From contig OZ242365.1 in the NCBI GenBank assembly GCA_965208905.1, positions 1,024,001 to 1,088,000 of the forward strand: a stretch of DNA of 64,000 nucleotides, in the 5' to 3' direction. The translations under genes were made by a program, and so were the position numbers. The stretch is from Nitrosopumilaceae archaeon. Lineage in GTDB: Archaea > Thermoproteota > Nitrososphaeria > Nitrososphaerales > Nitrosopumilaceae. The notes beneath the pieces were generated by a model. It was not told where the DNA came from, ran no database searches, and saw only the letters and a list, made by a program, of their open reading frames with translations. This document shows positions 1 to 23,449 of the stretch, one piece after another (within the stretch, counting starts at the first letter, position 1; every line of letters starts with the position of its first letter).

Positions 1-184
1 CTGCAGCTTTGGCAAGTATGTGGGCATCTTCAGATTTGGCACCGGTCTTGACGGACTTGCCTGCTGAATACGGCTTCATCACCCCCACACTCATACCTGA
101 CTCTCTCAGATGCCTTATGATGCGTACTGCTGCATACGTCTTACCTATACCCGTATCTGTTCCCAATATGAAGACCGATCTCAT
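1..184 (-). CDS. bioD: Dethiobiotin synthase, 5' part (runs off window start)
   Basis: Manual translation MRSVFILGTDTGIGKTYAAVRIIRHLRESGMSVGVMKPY has the BioD P-loop TDTGIGKT and the KP motif; not in the ORF track because it is truncated. Confidence 0.9.
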   Translation of the reverse strand, partial: MRSVFILGTDTGIGKTYAAVRIIRHLRESGMSVGVMKPYSAGKSVKTGAKSEDAHILAKAA

Positions 185-214
185 ACTACACATCACTGTA
201 TGATGTTCTATATA

Positions 215-1686
215 GGGAATTATATACAAAAGTACACAGCCTCGGCTGTACACTCATGCCTTTTCTGACGGCTCTTCTGTATTGAATGGAGCATAGAAGG
301 TGTTGGTTTGTAGCCCTCCTTATGCCCCGGCTGTCTTAGGACGACGTTCCCCGCCGCCCTATACAGGATATTCCAGGCGGCATTGACATCCGCGTGAAAC
401 ACTCTGGTACAATTAGTGCAAATGAATTTGTCGCGTGTGACACGCGACTTAGCATCCACCGTACCACACACATGGCACGTCTGGCTCGTGTATTTGGCAG
501 ATGCCCCCAACAGCGGTATGTTGTGTATCTCACACCACTGCGCAAGCTTGCGCAGGAACTCCCCGACACGGTTCTCCCGCATTGAACGGTTCATGGAGCG
601 TTTGTAATTCCCACCATGCGTGGTCATGTCCTTTACGGAGAGCGACTCGACCACGACTGCGTCCACACCATTAGTTATCTGCGCAATCGTCTGATTTATG
701 GTGTTCGCAGCTATGTTGTTGGCCTTCCTGTATAGCCGCTTTATTTGGTCATTCAATATATGCCACTTCCGGCCATGCCGTGTCTTGTGGTCACGCAAAC
801 TCTTTAGCGCGTCAATCTCCCGCAGGATTGCTCTATGGCGGGTGTTGTGTATTGTAACGTTGCCATTTGTGTCGACAGTGACGGCGAGATGCTTGCCGCC
901 CACATCAACACCCCGCATTACACCAGTATTGCGGTGCGACTCTACCGGTTCATGTATGGCAATATACAGCTCAAACATGTGGTCTGACGGCTTTGTATGC
1001 TTGTCCACCCGTTTGGTGACATCAACTATCTTGAATGAGCGCATGCCCCATGATGTATTGATGGGCTTGGCGGTCTCTACAATACCATATCCGGGGATAT
1101 GTATGGTGTGCCCACCTTTTCGTACAGGCGGTGTAACGGAACAAAGTATGATGCGGCCGTCTTTGCGGCGGTACGGCGCGTGGTCTGAGCTGTCATCTAT
1201 AACCCTTCTACATGCGACGGAGGCATCCTGTATGGCGCCCCTACCAAACGATGTGGGGCACTCGCGCAGCCATGTATGTTTGGCGCGCCACCCCGTAAGC
1301 TGTTTGTGCATGCCGTACTTTAATGCCCTCTTTGACGACCCAAAATCATATGTATGGTAGTCATAGTTCAGCGTACCGGACGTAACACCCTTCAACGTGT
1401 TCGGTAGTTTGAAGGGCTGTAGTATGTCCACTACCACCCTCTCCATGTATTCGCCGCCAAACAAATACTCTGATACGGCGCGGTTGTACACATATCTTGA
1501 CGCATGATTCGTGCGGTGCGCCCACTCTGCAAACAACACATCCATTCGTAGCGGTACCTTGACTATCCGTATCATAATGTATAATACGGTATGTTGGTAT
1601 TTAAGAGGAGTTGCTGTATGGACGCGTTCCGTGGTTCAGGTATTAACTCTCAGAATCGAGGTTGTGTACTTTTGTATATGATTCCC
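215..1686 (-). mobile_element. Non-autonomous TIR element carrying tnpB (IS1595-like ends)
   Basis: 30-bp TIRs at 215-244 (GGGAATTATATACAAAAGTACACAGCCTCG) and 1657-1686, 28/30 match; no transposase; no clean TSD. Confidence 0.8.
220..1575 (-). CDS. tnpB: RNA-guided endonuclease TnpB family protein
   Basis: RuvC-I GVDVG, RuvC-II VVESL, TSQTCHVC...CTNC zinc ribbon, RuvC-III HADVNAAWNI. Confidence 0.93.
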   Translation of the reverse strand: MIRIVKVPLRMDVLFAEWAHRTNHASRYVYNRAVSEYLFGGEYMERVVVDILQPFKLPNTLKGVTSGTLNYDYHTYDFGSSKRALKYGMHKQLTGWRAKHTWLRECPTSFGRGAIQDASVACRRVIDDSSDHAPYRRKDGRIILCSVTPPVRKGGHTIHIPGYGIVETAKPINTSWGMRSFKIVDVTKRVDKHTKPSDHMFELYIAIHEPVESHRNTGVMRGVDVGGKHLAVTVDTNGNVTIHNTRHRAILREIDALKSLRDHKTRHGRKWHILNDQIKRLYRKANNIAANTINQTIAQITNGVDAVVVESLSVKDMTTHGGNYKRSMNRSMRENRVGEFLRKLAQWCEIHNIPLLGASAKYTSQTCHVCGTVDAKSRVTRDKFICTNCTRVFHADVNAAWNILYRAAGNVVLRQPGHKEGYKPTPSMLHSIQKSRQKRHECTAEAVYFCI

Positions 1687-1782
1687 TTAATTTACGGTAA
1701 GCGCCGATAATTACACAGCTCAATAACCATACAAGCCTATTTTGATTGACCCGGATGTAAAGTTCGGAGGTCGGGGTGGCAG

Positions 1783-3204
1783 TTATCCTACGGTCCACTT
1801 GCTGGCTCCCTCATCACCGATGTGTACGCCGAGTATCCCATCTGGGCCTACGGCTATCACCGCGTATACTGTATCATCAACCCGCAGGATGTCTATGCCA
1901 AGCGCCATGTACCCTACGAGGCGCCCGACAACCTCAAGGTCCGACTCCCCCTCGTACAACCCTATATGGCCCTGTGTGTATCCCACATGGTATATGACAT
2001 CATCTATCTCTACCACCTCATGTATCACGTTGACACGCTTCACATTGTCCAGGTCTTCCCACGTTCTGGCGGGGTTCCTATCTAGGTGAATCAAATACGT
2101 CTGTATGCCATCAAAGGATGCGTCCACTAGGATGTATGTGCTGTCATCCTTGTGCGCCACCCCGTGTATGTGTTTGACACCCAGCAGATTAAAGTTGTCG
2201 GAGAGTGCTCCGGACCTTCGTATGTCATAAGGATCAGATACATCATACTGCTGTATGAGCCCCTTTGATACAGTTATCACGAGTGGCTTGCCGTCAACAT
2301 CAATTAGAACGGAATCTAGCACAGAGTTGTAGTGCGCAGTACCCGCCAGGGTGATGTTGGATGGGTCTGACAGGTCTGGCACACGAAATCCATTTGGGTA
2401 CATCTGAACGACATAAGGCTGTCCGTTCAGGGACCAGATGTCCACAGATGGCTCATCATACGAGTCCATCAGTTCCGGCTGATCCGAATCAGACATATCC
2501 AGAACATGTAGCCCGTCATCACCGGTGGATGCCACCACATATTCAGTACCGTTGATGCCCACCACCACTATATCATGAACGTGGTATCCCTGCAGGTGGA
2601 ACGACACCTCAAGTCTATTGCCACCGATATTATCAAAATTGGTTATACCCAAACGGGGGACAGTATATCCCAAGCTGTCAAAGGTCCTGTCGGGTGTCGG
2701 ATTTGCCGTGCCGTACATGAGATGACCCTCGTGGGAGCTGTGCCCCATTCCGAGCACATGGCCAAGTTCATGCGCCATCACGTACCTGATTATATCCGGG
2801 TTCGTGAGGCTGGCGCCATACACATCCGGCTCTGGTGAATCAAAGTCTATCCCGATTCGATGCCCCAGGGAACTGTCATGGTATTCCACCCCCCAAGCGT
2901 ACTCTGAATCAATCCACTCTATTAAAACATCGTGTCGGTCATCATGGCTTGGCGTGGCTATGATTCCGGGATTCACCTCAGTCCACGCGCTTATCCCGTC
3001 ACGGATGGCCTCCTTTATACTCTCCCAGTAGTCTTCGGCATAATCTGGGTACCTGTCCTGTAGCTCAGTGAATATGTCCGGGTGTATCCTGTATGTGATG
3101 ACCTGCGCATCAGCTGACTGTATGCCGTATGGGGCTGCCACCATGACTGCCACTACTGTTGCCATGCTTACCAAAGTTAGACTCTTGTCTGTCATATCCA
3201 CCAC
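1783..3204 (-). CDS. Secreted matrixin-type (M10) zinc metalloprotease with C-terminal LVIVD-like beta-propeller repeats
   Basis: Signal peptide, HELGHVLGMGH zinc motif followed by Met-turn LMY, repeats such as GLHVLDMSD and GFRVPDLSDP. Confidence 0.75.
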   Translation of the reverse strand: MVDMTDKSLTLVSMATVVAVMVAAPYGIQSADAQVITYRIHPDIFTELQDRYPDYAEDYWESIKEAIRDGISAWTEVNPGIIATPSHDDRHDVLIEWIDSEYAWGVEYHDSSLGHRIGIDFDSPEPDVYGASLTNPDIIRYVMAHELGHVLGMGHSSHEGHLMYGTANPTPDRTFDSLGYTVPRLGITNFDNIGGNRLEVSFHLQGYHVHDIVVVGINGTEYVVASTGDDGLHVLDMSDSDQPELMDSYDEPSVDIWSLNGQPYVVQMYPNGFRVPDLSDPSNITLAGTAHYNSVLDSVLIDVDGKPLVITVSKGLIQQYDVSDPYDIRRSGALSDNFNLLGVKHIHGVAHKDDSTYILVDASFDGIQTYLIHLDRNPARTWEDLDNVKRVNVIHEVVEIDDVIYHVGYTQGHIGLYEGESDLEVVGRLVGYMALGIDILRVDDTVYAVIAVGPDGILGVHIGDEGASKWTVG

Positions 3205-19558: not shown

Positions 19559-19629
19559 TGTAGTATATGAAAATTATGGGAATTATATAGTTTGTAACAA
19601 ACGAATATAAGGCAGAATCCCCCCCCCGT

Positions 19630-20994
19630 ATGGCAGGCATTAAGAATAGAACCATATTCACAGGGGATAATCTAGAGATATTACGTGGCTTTCCAGACGA
19701 ATTTGTAGATTTGATATATCTAGACCCACCGTTTAACTCCAAACATAACTATGCCGCTCCAATAGGTTCAAAGGCAGCCGGGGCCGCATTCAAGGATACG
19801 TGGAATCTAAGTGATATTGACTTGGCATGGTGGGGCGAGATCCAATGTACGAGTCCAACTGTATACAAGGTGCTTGAGATGGCCCGTGCAACGGCGGGAA
19901 AGTCAGCAATGTCGTATTTGATTTACATGGCAATACGCATATTGGAGTTACATAGAGTTTGCAAATCAACAGGTTCATGTTATATTCACTGTGATTCGAC
20001 TATGTCCCACTATTTGAAGATGGTACTTGATGCAATATTTGGCATTAAGAATTTTCGCAATGAGATACTCTGGAAACGGTTTAGTGCGCATAATGATGGC
20101 CGAAGGTATGGCAAGGTAACTGATACTCTATTATTCTATGCTAAGACATGTACACATACATGGAATAGAGTTTATACTCCATACTCAGATGAATATATAC
20201 AATCAAGTTACCGCGATGAGGATGAACTGGGCCGTTACACGCATAGAGCCTTAACAGCAGAAGGGCTATCGGGGGGAGGGTATGAGTATGAATTTCATGG
20301 ACATCATCGTATTTGGAAGAGATCTTTGGAATCCATGCAGCGATTAGAAAGTGAAGGAAAAATACACTTTCCGAAAAAGAGTGGAGGTGTGCCTAGATAC
20401 AAGATATATCTTAAAGATGCTCTAGGCATACCTTTACAAAATATTTGGACAGACATACCCATTGTAGGCGGTAATGAAAAACTACATTACCCAACTCAAA
20501 AACCCCTCGCCCTACTGGAACGTATTATCAAAGCATCAAGTAATGAGGGGGATATTGTATTGGATCCATTTTGTGGATGTGCTACAGCTTTGAGCGCGGC
20601 AGAGAAGTTAGATCGGCAATGGATAGGTATAGACATATCTACAAAAGCGTATGATTTGCTCAAAGACCGTCTTGTCAGAGAGGCGGGCCTTGACAAGTAC
20701 ACTAAAGGGGCGGGTATACTAATACACCGCACCGACATTCCAATACGCAAGGGCAGGCGGTCTAAAGACATCAAAGACACTCTATACGGTAAACAGAGGG
20801 GGCGGTGCAATCTCTGCCCTCACTGGTTTGAGTACAGACAAATGGACGTGGATCATATCATACCCAAGTCCAAGGGTGGGGCAAATGATGATGCAAACTT
20901 ACAGTTGTTATGCAACAACTGTAACAAGATCAAGGGTAATCGCACTATGGCAGAGGCAAGGGCAATACTCAAAGAAAGAGGGCTTATCGAGTAA
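19630..20994 (+). CDS. N6/N4 DNA methyltransferase fused to a C-terminal HNH endonuclease domain
   Basis: IYLDPPFNS (motif IV), YPTQKP, DPFCGCAT (motif I); then CNLC..DVDHIIPKSKGG..NLQLLCNNCNKIK HNH. Confidence 0.92.
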   Translation: MAGIKNRTIFTGDNLEILRGFPDEFVDLIYLDPPFNSKHNYAAPIGSKAAGAAFKDTWNLSDIDLAWWGEIQCTSPTVYKVLEMARATAGKSAMSYLIYMAIRILELHRVCKSTGSCYIHCDSTMSHYLKMVLDAIFGIKNFRNEILWKRFSAHNDGRRYGKVTDTLLFYAKTCTHTWNRVYTPYSDEYIQSSYRDEDELGRYTHRALTAEGLSGGGYEYEFHGHHRIWKRSLESMQRLESEGKIHFPKKSGGVPRYKIYLKDALGIPLQNIWTDIPIVGGNEKLHYPTQKPLALLERIIKASSNEGDIVLDPFCGCATALSAAEKLDRQWIGIDISTKAYDLLKDRLVREAGLDKYTKGAGILIHRTDIPIRKGRRSKDIKDTLYGKQRGRCNLCPHWFEYRQMDVDHIIPKSKGGANDDANLQLLCNNCNKIKGNRTMAEARAILKERGLIE

Positions 20995-21251
20995 TGGGGT
21001 TAAGGGAGTTGGGGGTATTAATTGGCTTAATTGTTGTAATGGTCATAGTGGCTATTTTAACTGCACTATGTGAATTTATGTCATCACAATCAAATTTAGA
21101 AGGTCTGTGGGCCGAGACTCATGAACGAAATTTATCAATTATCTGTTTTGTTGCTAACATGTTTAAGAATGACACAGCGGTGGAACAATCGCAAAATATT
21201 ATCACCATACAAAGGTATGATAACACACAAACCCACAATCAGTCTTGCTAA
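20994..21251 (+). CDS. Small hypothetical membrane protein (IS1595 passenger)
   Basis: Coupled to the MTase stop codon; N-terminal TM; overlaps an antisense ORF. Confidence 0.4.
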   Translation: MGLRELGVLIGLIVVMVIVAILTALCEFMSSQSNLEGLWAETHERNLSIICFVANMFKNDTAVEQSQNIITIQRYDNTQTHNQSC

Positions 21252-21422
21252 ATCATCTTGCCACCACTCTATTTGTGACGGCCCGCCAATCTGAACTCCC
21301 AAGATAGGAATTGTTAGGAATAAACCTAAGGCCAATCCAAAAAATATTACTGGTTTGCGTATGGATGTTGATCCCATAATTAAGTTAAAGTTAAAGATCA
21401 AATAAGTGTTACTGTTATGCAA
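21135..21422 (-). CDS. Small hypothetical two-TM protein (IS1595 passenger)
   Basis: Follows the transposase stop; two hydrophobic segments. Confidence 0.45.
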   Translation of the reverse strand: MHNSNTYLIFNFNLIMGSTSIRKPVIFFGLALGLFLTIPILGVQIGGPSQIEWWQDDLARLIVGLCVIIPLYGDNILRLFHRCVILKHVSNKTDN

Positions 21423-22377
21423 TCAACGCTTCATAAGTAAGCCTCTTTCCCATCATACCTCTAACTAGACTTACCATCATGTCTATTGTGTCTAGATTCC
21501 GAATGTTTAGCCGTCCTGCAAACTCGTTAACATACCTGTGTAGATGCTTTGCCGATATGTGATGAAACGTGCCGTAATAGCCACGCTTTAACAAAGCCCA
21601 GAAAGACTCTATGCCGTTGGTATGCGCCATGCCGTTTACATATTGACTAACGGAATGGTTAACCGTTTCATGATTAGGTAGGTTTTGGTATGCCCTACTC
21701 TCGTCCGTATAATGGGTTGCTCCCGTCTTGGTGTTTTGTTCAATAAATTTACCAAGACGGGCAGCGGTTGTATCCGGTACGGGTTCGGCTCTGATGTTAC
21801 CTGTCTTTCTATCTTTGATTCCAACCACGGCGGTTTTGTTGGCGCCGCCTTGACTGTGTGGGGTTTTCTTGTCTGCATGCTTGTTGGATTCCTTGCCTCC
21901 GAAATATGCCTCGTCAATTTCGACTGGGCCTTCCATCTTGTCTGTACCTGCCAGTGTATGCCATGATTCACGTAACCTTTGTACCATGAACCATGCCGAC
22001 TTTTGGGTTATGCCCAAATCCCTATGCAGTTTCATTGAACTAATACCCTTAACGTTGGTCATGAACTGATATGTTGCAATGGCCCATTGTTGATATGTCA
22101 TATGGGATTGTTCCATGATTGTTCCTACCTTGACACTAAACCGCTTGTGGCAATTCCCCACACCTGCACAGTAATACGGCATCTTTTTGTACTTTGTTTT
22201 TTTGATGTTGGTATTACCACAAAACGGGCAGCATGGCTTATCGTCCCAAATTGTACGTTCAAACCACTTTTCGGCGGCATCATCATCAGGAAATATCTTG
22301 AATAGTTTTGCAAGCGTTATTCCTTCACGGTGACTTTTACCGGGTGCTTGTTGGCTCATAGTATACCTTAGAAACAT
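21415..22377 (-). CDS. IS1595-family transposase
   Basis: N-terminal CPFC zinc ribbon, VEIDEAYFGG, YTDE, VNHS, HTNGIESFW; likely start 22359. Confidence 0.95.
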   Translation of the reverse strand: MFLRYTMSQQAPGKSHREGITLAKLFKIFPDDDAAEKWFERTIWDDKPCCPFCGNTNIKKTKYKKMPYYCAGVGNCHKRFSVKVGTIMEQSHMTYQQWAIATYQFMTNVKGISSMKLHRDLGITQKSAWFMVQRLRESWHTLAGTDKMEGPVEIDEAYFGGKESNKHADKKTPHSQGGANKTAVVGIKDRKTGNIRAEPVPDTTAARLGKFIEQNTKTGATHYTDESRAYQNLPNHETVNHSVSQYVNGMAHTNGIESFWALLKRGYYGTFHHISAKHLHRYVNEFAGRLNIRNLDTIDMMVSLVRGMMGKRLTYEALIA

Positions 22378-23449
22378 GGATTATATAAAGATTGTTACAA
22401 AGTATATAATTCCCAAAATTATGTCCGCTAGTCATTTGACTTCGCCTCCATCCAGTTGGGGCCCTTTGCCTTGGTCTTCTCGGCCGCTTTCTTGGCCGAG
22501 AACGCCTTGAGCGAAGTCTCGTAGTTGGCTATGTCCAGCGAAAAGTGGAGTCGCCTCTTGTTGTAATGCTGGATATACTCGGGCAGGCTCTCGTAGTGAC
22601 CTATCTCTTCCTCGATGGTTCTGTGGAACCGCTCAAGCTTCCCGTTCATCTGGGGGTGGCATGGTCTTGAGTTCATCAACTCGATACCCCTACCCAAGAG
22701 CTCCTCCTCGAACGCGGTGGACTTCCAGGATCCTTTGGGGTTGCCCTTGCGCATGCCCACAAAGCAAGATCTATTGTCCGACAGGATGGTAGCCGGCGTT
22801 CCGAACCGCCTAATTGTTTACTGGAGCGCCACCACGGCGTTCTCCGAGGTAGCCTAAGTGAACCGGCTCGCCCCGGTCACGCATCTTGAGGCATCGTCCA
22901 GGAATGTGATGAGACAAAGCCCACTCATACGCGAACTCTTCATGACGTGCCAGTTGGTGTACCACATGGAGTTGGAGTGCTTACGCTCGTATCGCACCCA
23001 CTTATGCTTTCGTGACTTTGCTTCGGATGGTGCGACTCGCTCACTCTCCTTCATAATCAGGATACTCGCTGGTAGATTATATTATGACCCGCTCTGCGCA
23101 GGCTTATTGCCGTGCGTACCACGCCTACCTCCTCCAACTGGTAGGCGTCCAGTACCAACTGTACCTCATCCGGCGACGGCGATAGCAGGGCGGGCCTGCC
23201 CGGAGTGCGCGGAATAGGCGCGGATCCGGTCTTGCGGAACTTGGCGTACGGCCTCCGAATGTGCCTTGATGTCACTCCGAGCTCGGCGGCCACCACAGAA
23301 GATCTCCTGCCTTTCTCAAGTTGGTTTATGGCGTACCGGATGGACTTTGCCGTAAGACGCTTTGCCATATTTTTTCTTGATCGATACAGCGTATAATGCT
23401 CCTTTATGGTGCGCTTGATCTTAGTCGGACCTAATTTCCGTACAATAGA

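Follow-up and report, generated by a model that had tools for sequence, protein, structure and literature searches.

The RNA-guided nuclease TnpB is usually found in insertion sequences (IS) of the IS200/IS605 or IS607 type, and insertions of neither type make terminal repeats or target duplications, as stated in the relevant passages of a 2026 review (PMC13565253). The main text of Altae-Tran et al. (2023; PMC10691335) describes six TnpB branches linked to DDE transposases (DDE-1 to DDE-6), all with inverted terminal repeats, and the partner that it names is IS630; ISL2, IS630, and IS1031 are the DDE partners listed in the review (PMC13565253). The same main text of 2023 also reports solo TnpBs with ends that hardly differ from the ends of elements carrying a transposase, and reads them as mobilized in trans (PMC10691335). 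Here, we describe a 1.47-kb element with tnpB as its sole gene from a Nitrosopumilaceae archaeon, located in a 64,000-nucleotide stretch of contig OZ242365.1 (GenBank assembly GCA_965208905.1, positions 1,024,001 to 1,088,000), hereafter referred to as the window. We consider it probable that this element is a non-autonomous "mobile insertion cassette" of the IS1595 family. As it has tnpB alone between ends of the IS1595 type, its movement most likely depends on transposases from other loci of the same genome.

As in the DDE-linked TnpBs of the 2023 main text (PMC10691335), tnpB is placed between inverted repeats, with its 3' end 5 bp from the transposon end (within 250 bp in theirs); unlike in those, no element here combined tnpB with the transposase (0 of 9 transposase elements). 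With the solo tnpB elements of the IS1341 type (IS200/IS605), the window element shares the content (tnpB only) and the size of about 1.4 to 1.5 kb. However, IS1341-type elements have no terminal inverted repeats, make no duplication, and depend on the Y1 TnpA, and the window element differs on all three points. It likewise differs on each point from IS607 elements, which have a serine-recombinase TnpA, no repeats, and no duplication. For the IS1595 family itself, "transporter IS" and mobile insertion cassettes were reportedly described by Siguier, Gagnevin, and Chandler in 2009. The IS1595 element of the window fits that description in that it carries a methyltransferase-HNH passenger of its own. 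The tnpB element differs from such cassettes in its passenger, an RNA-guided nuclease with an RNA that seems to terminate in the repeat, so that this cargo is probably bound up with the life cycle of the element and not an arbitrary load. More generally, IS ends that bracket passengers with or without a transposase gene, and non-autonomous forms that are activated by a cognate transposase, are treated in the pertinent sections of Varani et al. (2011; PMC3129680).

The association of OMEGA nucleases (named for their obligate mobile element-guided activity) with DDE transposases in prokaryotes is called rare in the part of the 2026 review that deals with it, and rigid target recognition is suggested there as the reason (PMC13565253). 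IS1595 has no mention in the main text of Altae-Tran et al. (PMC10691335), whose transposase families are listed in its supplements, outside this check. A full-text literature search, judged by titles and abstracts, returned no paper on the pairing of TnpB with IS1595, and two further searches, one on TnpB in Cenarchaeum and one on IS1595 in Thaumarchaeota, returned none on such a cassette. Inverted ends are already on record for TnpBs both linked to DDE transposases and solo, and IS1595 as the partner is absent from the literature consulted, supplements aside. A tnpB-only cassette in IS1595 ends is a rare arrangement in prokaryotes of a generally reported kind.

The coordinates of the element, its parts, and its neighbors in the window are collected in Table 1. 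The two terminal inverted repeats are enclosed by a slightly longer repeat (arms 214-244 and 1657-1687) of 31 nt with 94% complementarity. The window contains two matches to a 23-nt end motif (0.00 expected from 100 shuffles), and the genome, with up to 3 mismatches, contains 22 + 22, compared with 0 + 0 for the reversed control. The encoded protein matches the Pfam models PF07282, Cas12f1-like_TNB (59.2 bits; cut-off, 26.3), and PF01385, OrfB_IS605 (33.8 bits; cut-off, 30.5), as well as the NCBIfam model NF040570, guided_TnpB (120.2 bits; cut-off, 100). It scores under the cut-offs of the exception models IS200_TnpB and IS607_TnpB and aligns with the solved TnpB structure 8iaz_A (E = 1e-11). 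The catalytic residues D224, E310, and D396 and the cysteines C367, C370, C386, and C389 are all present. The TATA-like box falls into a stretch with a mean column conservation of 0.91 among 15 copies (columns 121 to 150), and the tnpB transcript is probably leaderless. A first-pass annotation of the window had noted the 28/30 repeats, the intact RuvC D-E-D triad and zinc ribbon, the stop codon inside the repeat, the upstream TTAAATA, and AT-rich flanks without a perfect 8-bp duplication, and each of these points was confirmed. Of the hallmarks of the IS1595 family, the element has the terminal inverted repeats and, at the level of its family of copies, the 8-bp duplication; a DDE transposase of its own with an N-terminal zinc ribbon is absent. 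Since tnpB is the only long open reading frame (ORF), the element is a derivative of IS1595 and not an IS in its own right.

Table 1. Positions of the tnpB element, its parts, and other features discussed here, numbered from the first nucleotide of the window
Feature	Position	Strand	Remarks
Whole element (family A copy)	215..1686	-	1472 bp; tnpB is the sole gene; bounded by the inverted repeat
Right-end terminal inverted repeat, downstream of tnpB	215..244		GGGAATTATATACAAAAGTACACAGCCTCG; outer 13 nt equal the IS1595 end at 22402-22414
Left-end terminal inverted repeat, upstream of tnpB	1657..1686		Minus strand reads GGGAATCATATAC...; 28/30 match to the right end
tnpB ORF	220..1575	-	451 aa; stop codon 220-222 within the repeat; only long ORF of the element
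TATA-like box TTAAATA	1598..1604	-	22 nt separate the box from the ATG at 1575
Putative omega-RNA scaffold	215..361	-	Last ~147 nt, in the 3' end of the ORF and the repeat; four nested helices, possible pseudoknot
Predicted guide-templating flank	195..214	-	DNA adjoining the right end; extends into the TATATA box and the first part of the BioD-like gene; predicted from TnpB biology and the flank motif
26 bp adjoining the left end	1687..1712		Specific to the host genome; the sister genome has 88 unrelated bp, after which homology resumes
Autonomous IS1595-family element	19578..22414	-	2837 bp; same 13-nt terminus; 8-bp duplication AAAATTAT at 19570-19577 / 22415-22422
IS1595 transposase	21415..22377	-	320 aa; Pfam DDE_Tnp_IS1595, 139.6 bits, and Zn_ribbon_IS1595; NCBIfam transpos_IS1595, 173.4 (cut-off, 75)
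Passenger gene of the IS1595 element	19630..20994	+	454 aa; N6/N4 DNA methyltransferase-HNH endonuclease fusion
BioD-like gene	start ~187		Pfam AAA_26 match

The host genome (G000; 2.21 Mb in one contig, 99.6% complete) contains 17 repeat-bounded copies of this element, referred to here as family A and defined by the pairing of matches to the end motif. They comprise 15 full-length copies (14 of them with an open tnpB), one copy interrupted by an IS630-like gene, and one internally deleted to 641 bp. Perfect 8-bp target duplications flank 12 of the 17 copies, and another copy has 7 of 8 matching positions; the remaining four have 6, 5, 4, and 2, and none of 68 off-register control comparisons exceeded 5 of 8. 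Eight family A copies other than that of the window were compared with the orthologous sites in the closest relative (G005, the sister genome), with flanks 89 to 98% identical. Five of these sites are cleanly empty in the sister genome, with one 8-mer each; one copy lies within a further ~163 bp that the sister genome is without, and for two copies one flank was not found there. Family A insertions are of the cut-and-paste type, with an 8-bp staggered cut of the target. The first-pass annotation had named the lack of any other copy with these ends or with an 8-bp duplication as something that would count against its reading, and the opposite was found.

These observations leave little room for an ordinary tnpB element of the IS200/IS605 (IS1341-type) or IS607 kind whose repeats would be subterminal hairpins or a coincidence. 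Those are the usual homes of tnpB, and the right end of the element does carry a hairpin; however, 30-bp repeats at the exact termini, 8-bp duplications, and empty sites with a single 8-mer contradict both kinds, and so does the absence of their enzymes. Searches of the host genome gave no match to PF01797 (Y1 TnpA; 6 of 14 control genomes responded) and none to PF00239 (serine recombinase; 12 of 14 responded). We consider this explanation extremely improbable. A search with the window TnpB protein at E values up to 0.001 returned 60 matches in the host genome, which combines about 60 TnpB matches with a complete absence of the canonical TnpB partners.

An immobile tnpB, either domesticated as a regulator or persisting as an inactive relic, is very unlikely as well. 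Most TnpB clusters are immobile according to the main text of Altae-Tran et al. (2023; PMC10691335), which would favor such a view; family A, however, has its 17 copies at different sites, with insertions that are absent from the sister genome. The three catalytic residues and the four cysteines are invariant among the 14 intact copies, which differ in up to 22% of their DNA positions, and the ratio of nonsynonymous to synonymous substitution rates (dN/dS) among them is 0.10 to 0.32, with a median of 0.21. Such values, together with invariant residues in many separate copies, indicate that tnpB is under purifying selection.

Several other observations concern family A and its ends. The interrupted copy (G000:C1 1972621-1975198), which has a perfect 8-bp duplication, is split by a gene for a 335-aa IS630-like transposase (DDE_3 plus helix-turn-helix). 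Non-coding miniature elements of 115, 372, and 430 bp (G000:C1 658457-658571, 341419-341790, and 759618-760047) have the GGGAAT tip and perfect 8-bp duplications. The sister genome has no family A tnpB at E values up to 1e-60; it retains a remnant of ~83 bp (G005:C1:559425-559508) that is 82 to 86% identical to the right end of family A, and therefore either family A was once present in that lineage or the fragment was transferred.

What points to IS1595 as the source of the transposase is the tip of the repeat. As the first-pass annotation had stated, the outer 13 nt of the element, GGGAATTATATAC, also end the autonomous IS1595 element of the window (22402-22414, minus strand). The host genome encodes four intact IS1595 transposases (PF12762; 140 to 142 bits), each in an element with GGGAATTATA(TAC) ends and an 8/8 duplication. 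Two of these elements differ at 1 of 2131 positions, which indicates a transposase active very recently. The sister genome has five elements with the same 13-mer at their ends and 8/8 duplications, four with a full-length transposase gene and one a deletion derivative; in two of the five, including the deletion derivative, the repeat reads GGGAATTATATACAATAGTACA... and, over its first 22 positions, agrees with that of the cassette at 21. On this basis, we suggest that an IS1595 DDE transposase acts in trans, binding to the ends that both kinds of element have in common and moving the cassette by cut-and-paste.

Several facts weigh against this reading. The outer 13 nt of the cassette are identical in two of the host IS1595 elements and only the outer 10 nt in the two recently active ones, so that no transposase element of the host genome matches the cassette repeat beyond 13 nt. 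None of the nine elements that carry the transposase gene or a remnant of it contains tnpB, and the link between the two kinds of element consists of the shared ends only. The closest family A pair is 98.2% identical, which shows no very recent move, and the window copy has no demonstrable target duplication. The mover might then have been another DDE family with 8-bp duplications, or a cognate IS1595 variant since lost, with the present IS1595 copies not being partners and the family now immobile in this genome. This alternative would account for the limited match to all four host elements, for the best repeat match lying in the sister genome and not in the host genome, and for the lack of any cassette pair above 98.2% identity. 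Against it, every element inside GGGAATTATA ends holds an IS1595 transposase, tnpB, or nothing; the 13-mer is kept across species whose TnpBs are 56% identical, which argues for a conserved reader of the tip; and an IS1595 transposase is present in 10 of 10 genomes of the genus. We regard it as unlikely and retain mobilization by an IS1595 transposase as the preferred explanation. The transposase with the same inner repeat, proposed as a check by the first-pass annotation, was thus not found in the host genome, where the match ends at 13 nt at most; the best counterpart, with one mismatch in 22 positions, is in the sister genome.

Two observations concern the IS1595 elements themselves. A second copy in the host genome (1770047-1772736) has a related methyltransferase gene that is split into two frames of 346 and 150 aa. 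The IS1595 element of the window is adjoined at 22428-22760 by a 110-aa remnant of an integrase-core (rve_3) gene of the IS3/IS481-like kind.

Within the genus, 9 of 10 genomes have the 13-mer (control hits, 0 to 1), and 5 of the 9 members besides the host have relatives of the window TnpB (E values up to 1e-60); a search of 51 genomes from outside the genus returned no such relative. In G006, a genome of the genus whose TnpB is 56% identical to that of the window, the inner repeat is different, yet the 13-mer is retained, and the duplication is perfect (8/8) in 5 of 7 copies. The host genome also contains three further tnpB families, B, C, and D, which are 26 to 31% identical to family A and have the same tip and 8-bp duplications, and relatives of family B in two further genomes likewise combine the tip with 8-bp duplications. 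A quick tree sets families A and B apart from C and D, which are placed among tnpBs with other ends. This topology would offer no support for a single capture of the ends, and the shared tip may have been acquired more than once, although long branches make this reading unsafe. Other tnpB families of the host genome are without the GGGAAT tip (G000:C1 376975-378453, 250605-252075, 394398-395812, and others) and are flanked by other long inverted repeats; perfect arms of 39 nt and 42 nt around 377247-378098 bracket one such tnpB. The ends of three weaker IS1595-like transposase genes, sought as a link to these other families, yielded nothing usable.

The window copy itself is less informative than its relatives. 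Its flanks, TCTATATA and TTAATTTA, agree at 5 of 8 positions, which is also the maximum of the off-register control. At the orthologous site of the sister genome, the element is absent, and homology extends precisely as far as the right-end tip (...CTATATA|). The first-pass annotation had envisaged that a related genome might show a tnpB-less miniature inverted-repeat transposable element at this site, together with a separate insertion of the IS605 type; in this closest relative there is neither. The 26 bp next to the left end (Table 1) have no second copy in the host genome, in the sister genome, or in G008, another genome of the genus, and an exchange of flanks with another copy was not demonstrable for the window copy on inspection of its flanks. 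Both junctions are present in contigs of two sequencing runs (X1 and X8) from different studies. The copy thus arrived after the split of the host and sister lineages, with either a later rearrangement of the flank upstream of tnpB or a change of the intergenic region in the sister genome. In the scenario that we favor, tnpB and both repeats stayed intact and the duplication would have been lost by rearrangement on the tnpB-upstream side. The missing duplication leaves the family-level result intact, and the window copy alone proves nothing. IS1595-mediated mobility, as proposed by the first-pass annotation, is therefore supported for the family, by its copies, 8-bp duplications, empty sites, and shared tip, whereas the window copy itself is without a duplication. 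Two family C copies (G000:C1 1455264-1456902 and 2049469-2051107) have swapped flanks, with TAATTTCC to the left of one and to the right of the other, as expected from recombination between two copies.

Features of the right end of the element suggest a guide RNA. The last ~147 nt look like an omega-RNA scaffold that would lie wholly within the ORF and the repeat and end at the tip of the element. The fold of the 266-nt right end has a z score of -4.3. In a structure drawn from an alignment (A2) of 20 right ends from three genomes, 88.8% of the cells pair, compared with 44 to 49% when the partners are slid; two-sided changes are seen in 7 pairs (2 to 3 in the slid controls), and the covariation score is 0.151 (0.03 to 0.10). 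A hairpin is found at the right end of every tnpB family with these ends, with the inner repeat as its 3' arm and the last 11 to 13 nt free. In family A and its relatives in G006, an invariant hairpin loop, GGGA(A/U), at position -137 is complementary to the terminal UUCCC; the part of Yoon et al. (2023; PMC10711439) that bears on this describes a pseudoknot of the TnpB guide RNA between positions near -130 and -3. The ORF reaches the same TAA in the repeat tip in 8 of 10 elements examined.

A number of results count against such an RNA. The covariation is essentially between two clades, and the structure was derived from the same sequences. A search of Rfam with window positions 1 to 2000 at E values up to 1 gave no match; synonymous change at the 3' end of tnpB is not suppressed within the family; and the last 150 nt, at 65% between the two clades (43 to 79% elsewhere), are not unusually conserved. 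Two metatranscriptome runs contain low-depth contigs on parts of tnpB, at 93 to 97% identity, and such contigs carry no information on strand, ends, or level. One metatranscriptome contig spans the right end of another copy into its flank; none of these contigs was counted as evidence.

If the RNA ends at the tip, the sequence next to the element acquires a meaning. We oriented all insertions by tnpB and assigned position -9 to the base that directly precedes the duplication at the tnpB-upstream end. A guide beginning at the repeat tip would have the 8-mer as its first 8 nt, and the transposon-associated motif (TAM) of TnpB would sit exactly at -9. This position is a G in 22 of 27 insertions overall: 15 of 17 in the host genome (binomial P = 2e-8, given a G frequency of 0.229), 5 of 7 in G006 (with copy L034 read on the strand of its tnpB), and 2 of 3 in G008, the third copy of which has a G one base off. 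Families C and D have it in 3 of 3 insertions. The mirror-image C after the right end occurs in only 4 of 17 copies, and two of the nine IS1595 transposase elements have the G, whichever orientation is taken. The target preferences of DDE transposases are normally symmetric. Because asymmetry is not expected of DDE target choice and is in the nature of a TAM, the asymmetric G would fit a TAM, and we treat the G at -9 as a candidate for it.

From these parts, the following course of events can be put together, each step of which is less certain than the transposition itself. A TATA box of its own may drive the transcription of tnpB; the omega-RNA scaffold would consist of the final ~147 nt of the transcript and stop precisely at the tip of the repeat, and read-through into the flank would supply a guide that starts with the 8-bp duplication. 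TnpB could then cut the element-free allele, in which the G is followed by the 8-mer and the flank, and repair from the filled chromosome copy would restore or spread the cassette. The filled locus would be spared, as a C precedes the match at the right end and only 8 nt match at the left end. Landing that is blind to the TAM, followed by TnpB-driven homing only next to a G, would account for the G, specific to one orientation, in 22 of the 27 insertions that survive. We therefore put forward, tentatively and with less confidence than doubt, that an archaeal TnpB lineage is a standing cargo of IS1595 ends, with the tip doubling as the 3' end of the omega RNA and as a pseudoknot partner, a guide starting with the duplication, a TAM just outside it, and G-adjacent insertions kept or spread by homing.

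Three observations speak against a TAM at this position: family B has the G in only 2 of 6 insertions, the empty sites in the sister genome have A or T in 2 of 5 cases where the host genome has G, and one conserved base is weak as a TAM motif. They would be accommodated if IS1595 moved the cassette and the G reflected a preference of the transposition complex, the two ends of which differ on the inside, with the guide and the role of TnpB unrelated to the flank. That reading agrees with a single strongly conserved base, with the empty sites that are without the G, and with family B. However, the transposase elements with the same tip have G in only 2 of 9 cases, symmetric preferences are the norm for DDE transposases in general, and the G occupies the place that a TAM would have to take for a guide beginning at the repeat tip; on balance, a transposition preference appears doubtful, if hardly far-fetched. 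The two sister-genome sites concerned, those of copies 339644 and 2149851 (L106 and L115), have T or A at the G position, a proportion that exceeds the 2 to 10% divergence of the flanks. These bases could be due to chance, to later change, or, under the homing reading, to TAM-less alleles that escaped homing.

A parallel comes from eukaryotes. Fanzor, the eukaryotic TnpB, was reportedly noted by Bao and Jurka in 2013 in transposons of the cut-and-paste type that have inverted repeats and duplicate their target sites. As there, an RNA-guided nuclease is carried by a DDE transposon that makes duplications, and the scaffold includes bases of the repeat that is read by the transposase, so far as the pertinent parts of Yoon et al. 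(PMC10711439) and of the 2026 review (PMC13565253) describe them. As given in the Fanzor passage of that review, the TAM of Fanzor includes the 5' duplication, and its scaffold contains the 3' duplication; in the window element, by contrast, the conserved base is not within the 8-mer, and this suggests that the first 8 nt of the guide are the duplication. A Fanzor-like geometry, with the TAM inside the duplication, was considered and dropped, as positions 5 to 8 of the 8-mer are not conserved. The system described here further differs from Fanzor in being prokaryotic and compact (451 aa), with the stop codon of the ORF inside the repeat.

With regard to its surroundings, the right end of the element is 29 bp upstream of the start of the BioD-like gene (AAA_26; window 185-214), which has the same orientation as tnpB, and directly abuts the TATATA box of that gene; read-through from the element could reach it. 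A metagenome scan for a 24-nt end motif gave 0 matches, and a collection of genome contigs contained 2 related loci, both fragmentary. Of the 20 runs in which the stretch is present in part or in full, most are labelled as sponge metagenome or bear a coded organism name, and, to judge from two related records, the TnpB family occurs in Cenarchaeum, a group of archaea associated with sponges.

The interest of this locus lies less in the cassette than in the shared tip, the scaffold that appears to end in that tip, and the orientation-specific G. The data set from this genus makes it testable how OMEGA nucleases cooperate with prokaryotic cut-and-paste DDE transposons, as the genus offers dozens of dated insertions with empty-site controls and several TnpB lineages on one transposon tip. 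The position of the candidate TAM predicts how guide, target, and duplication are related, and this geometry can be tested directly on a compact archaeal TnpB whose putative omega-RNA has sharply defined boundaries. If only the transposon part is true, the element would be another well-documented passenger cassette of the IS1595 family. If TnpB is indeed a standing cargo of IS1595 ends, these archaea would have a prokaryotic solution, unlike that of Fanzor, to the combination of an RNA-guided nuclease with a transposon whose insertion duplicates the target site.

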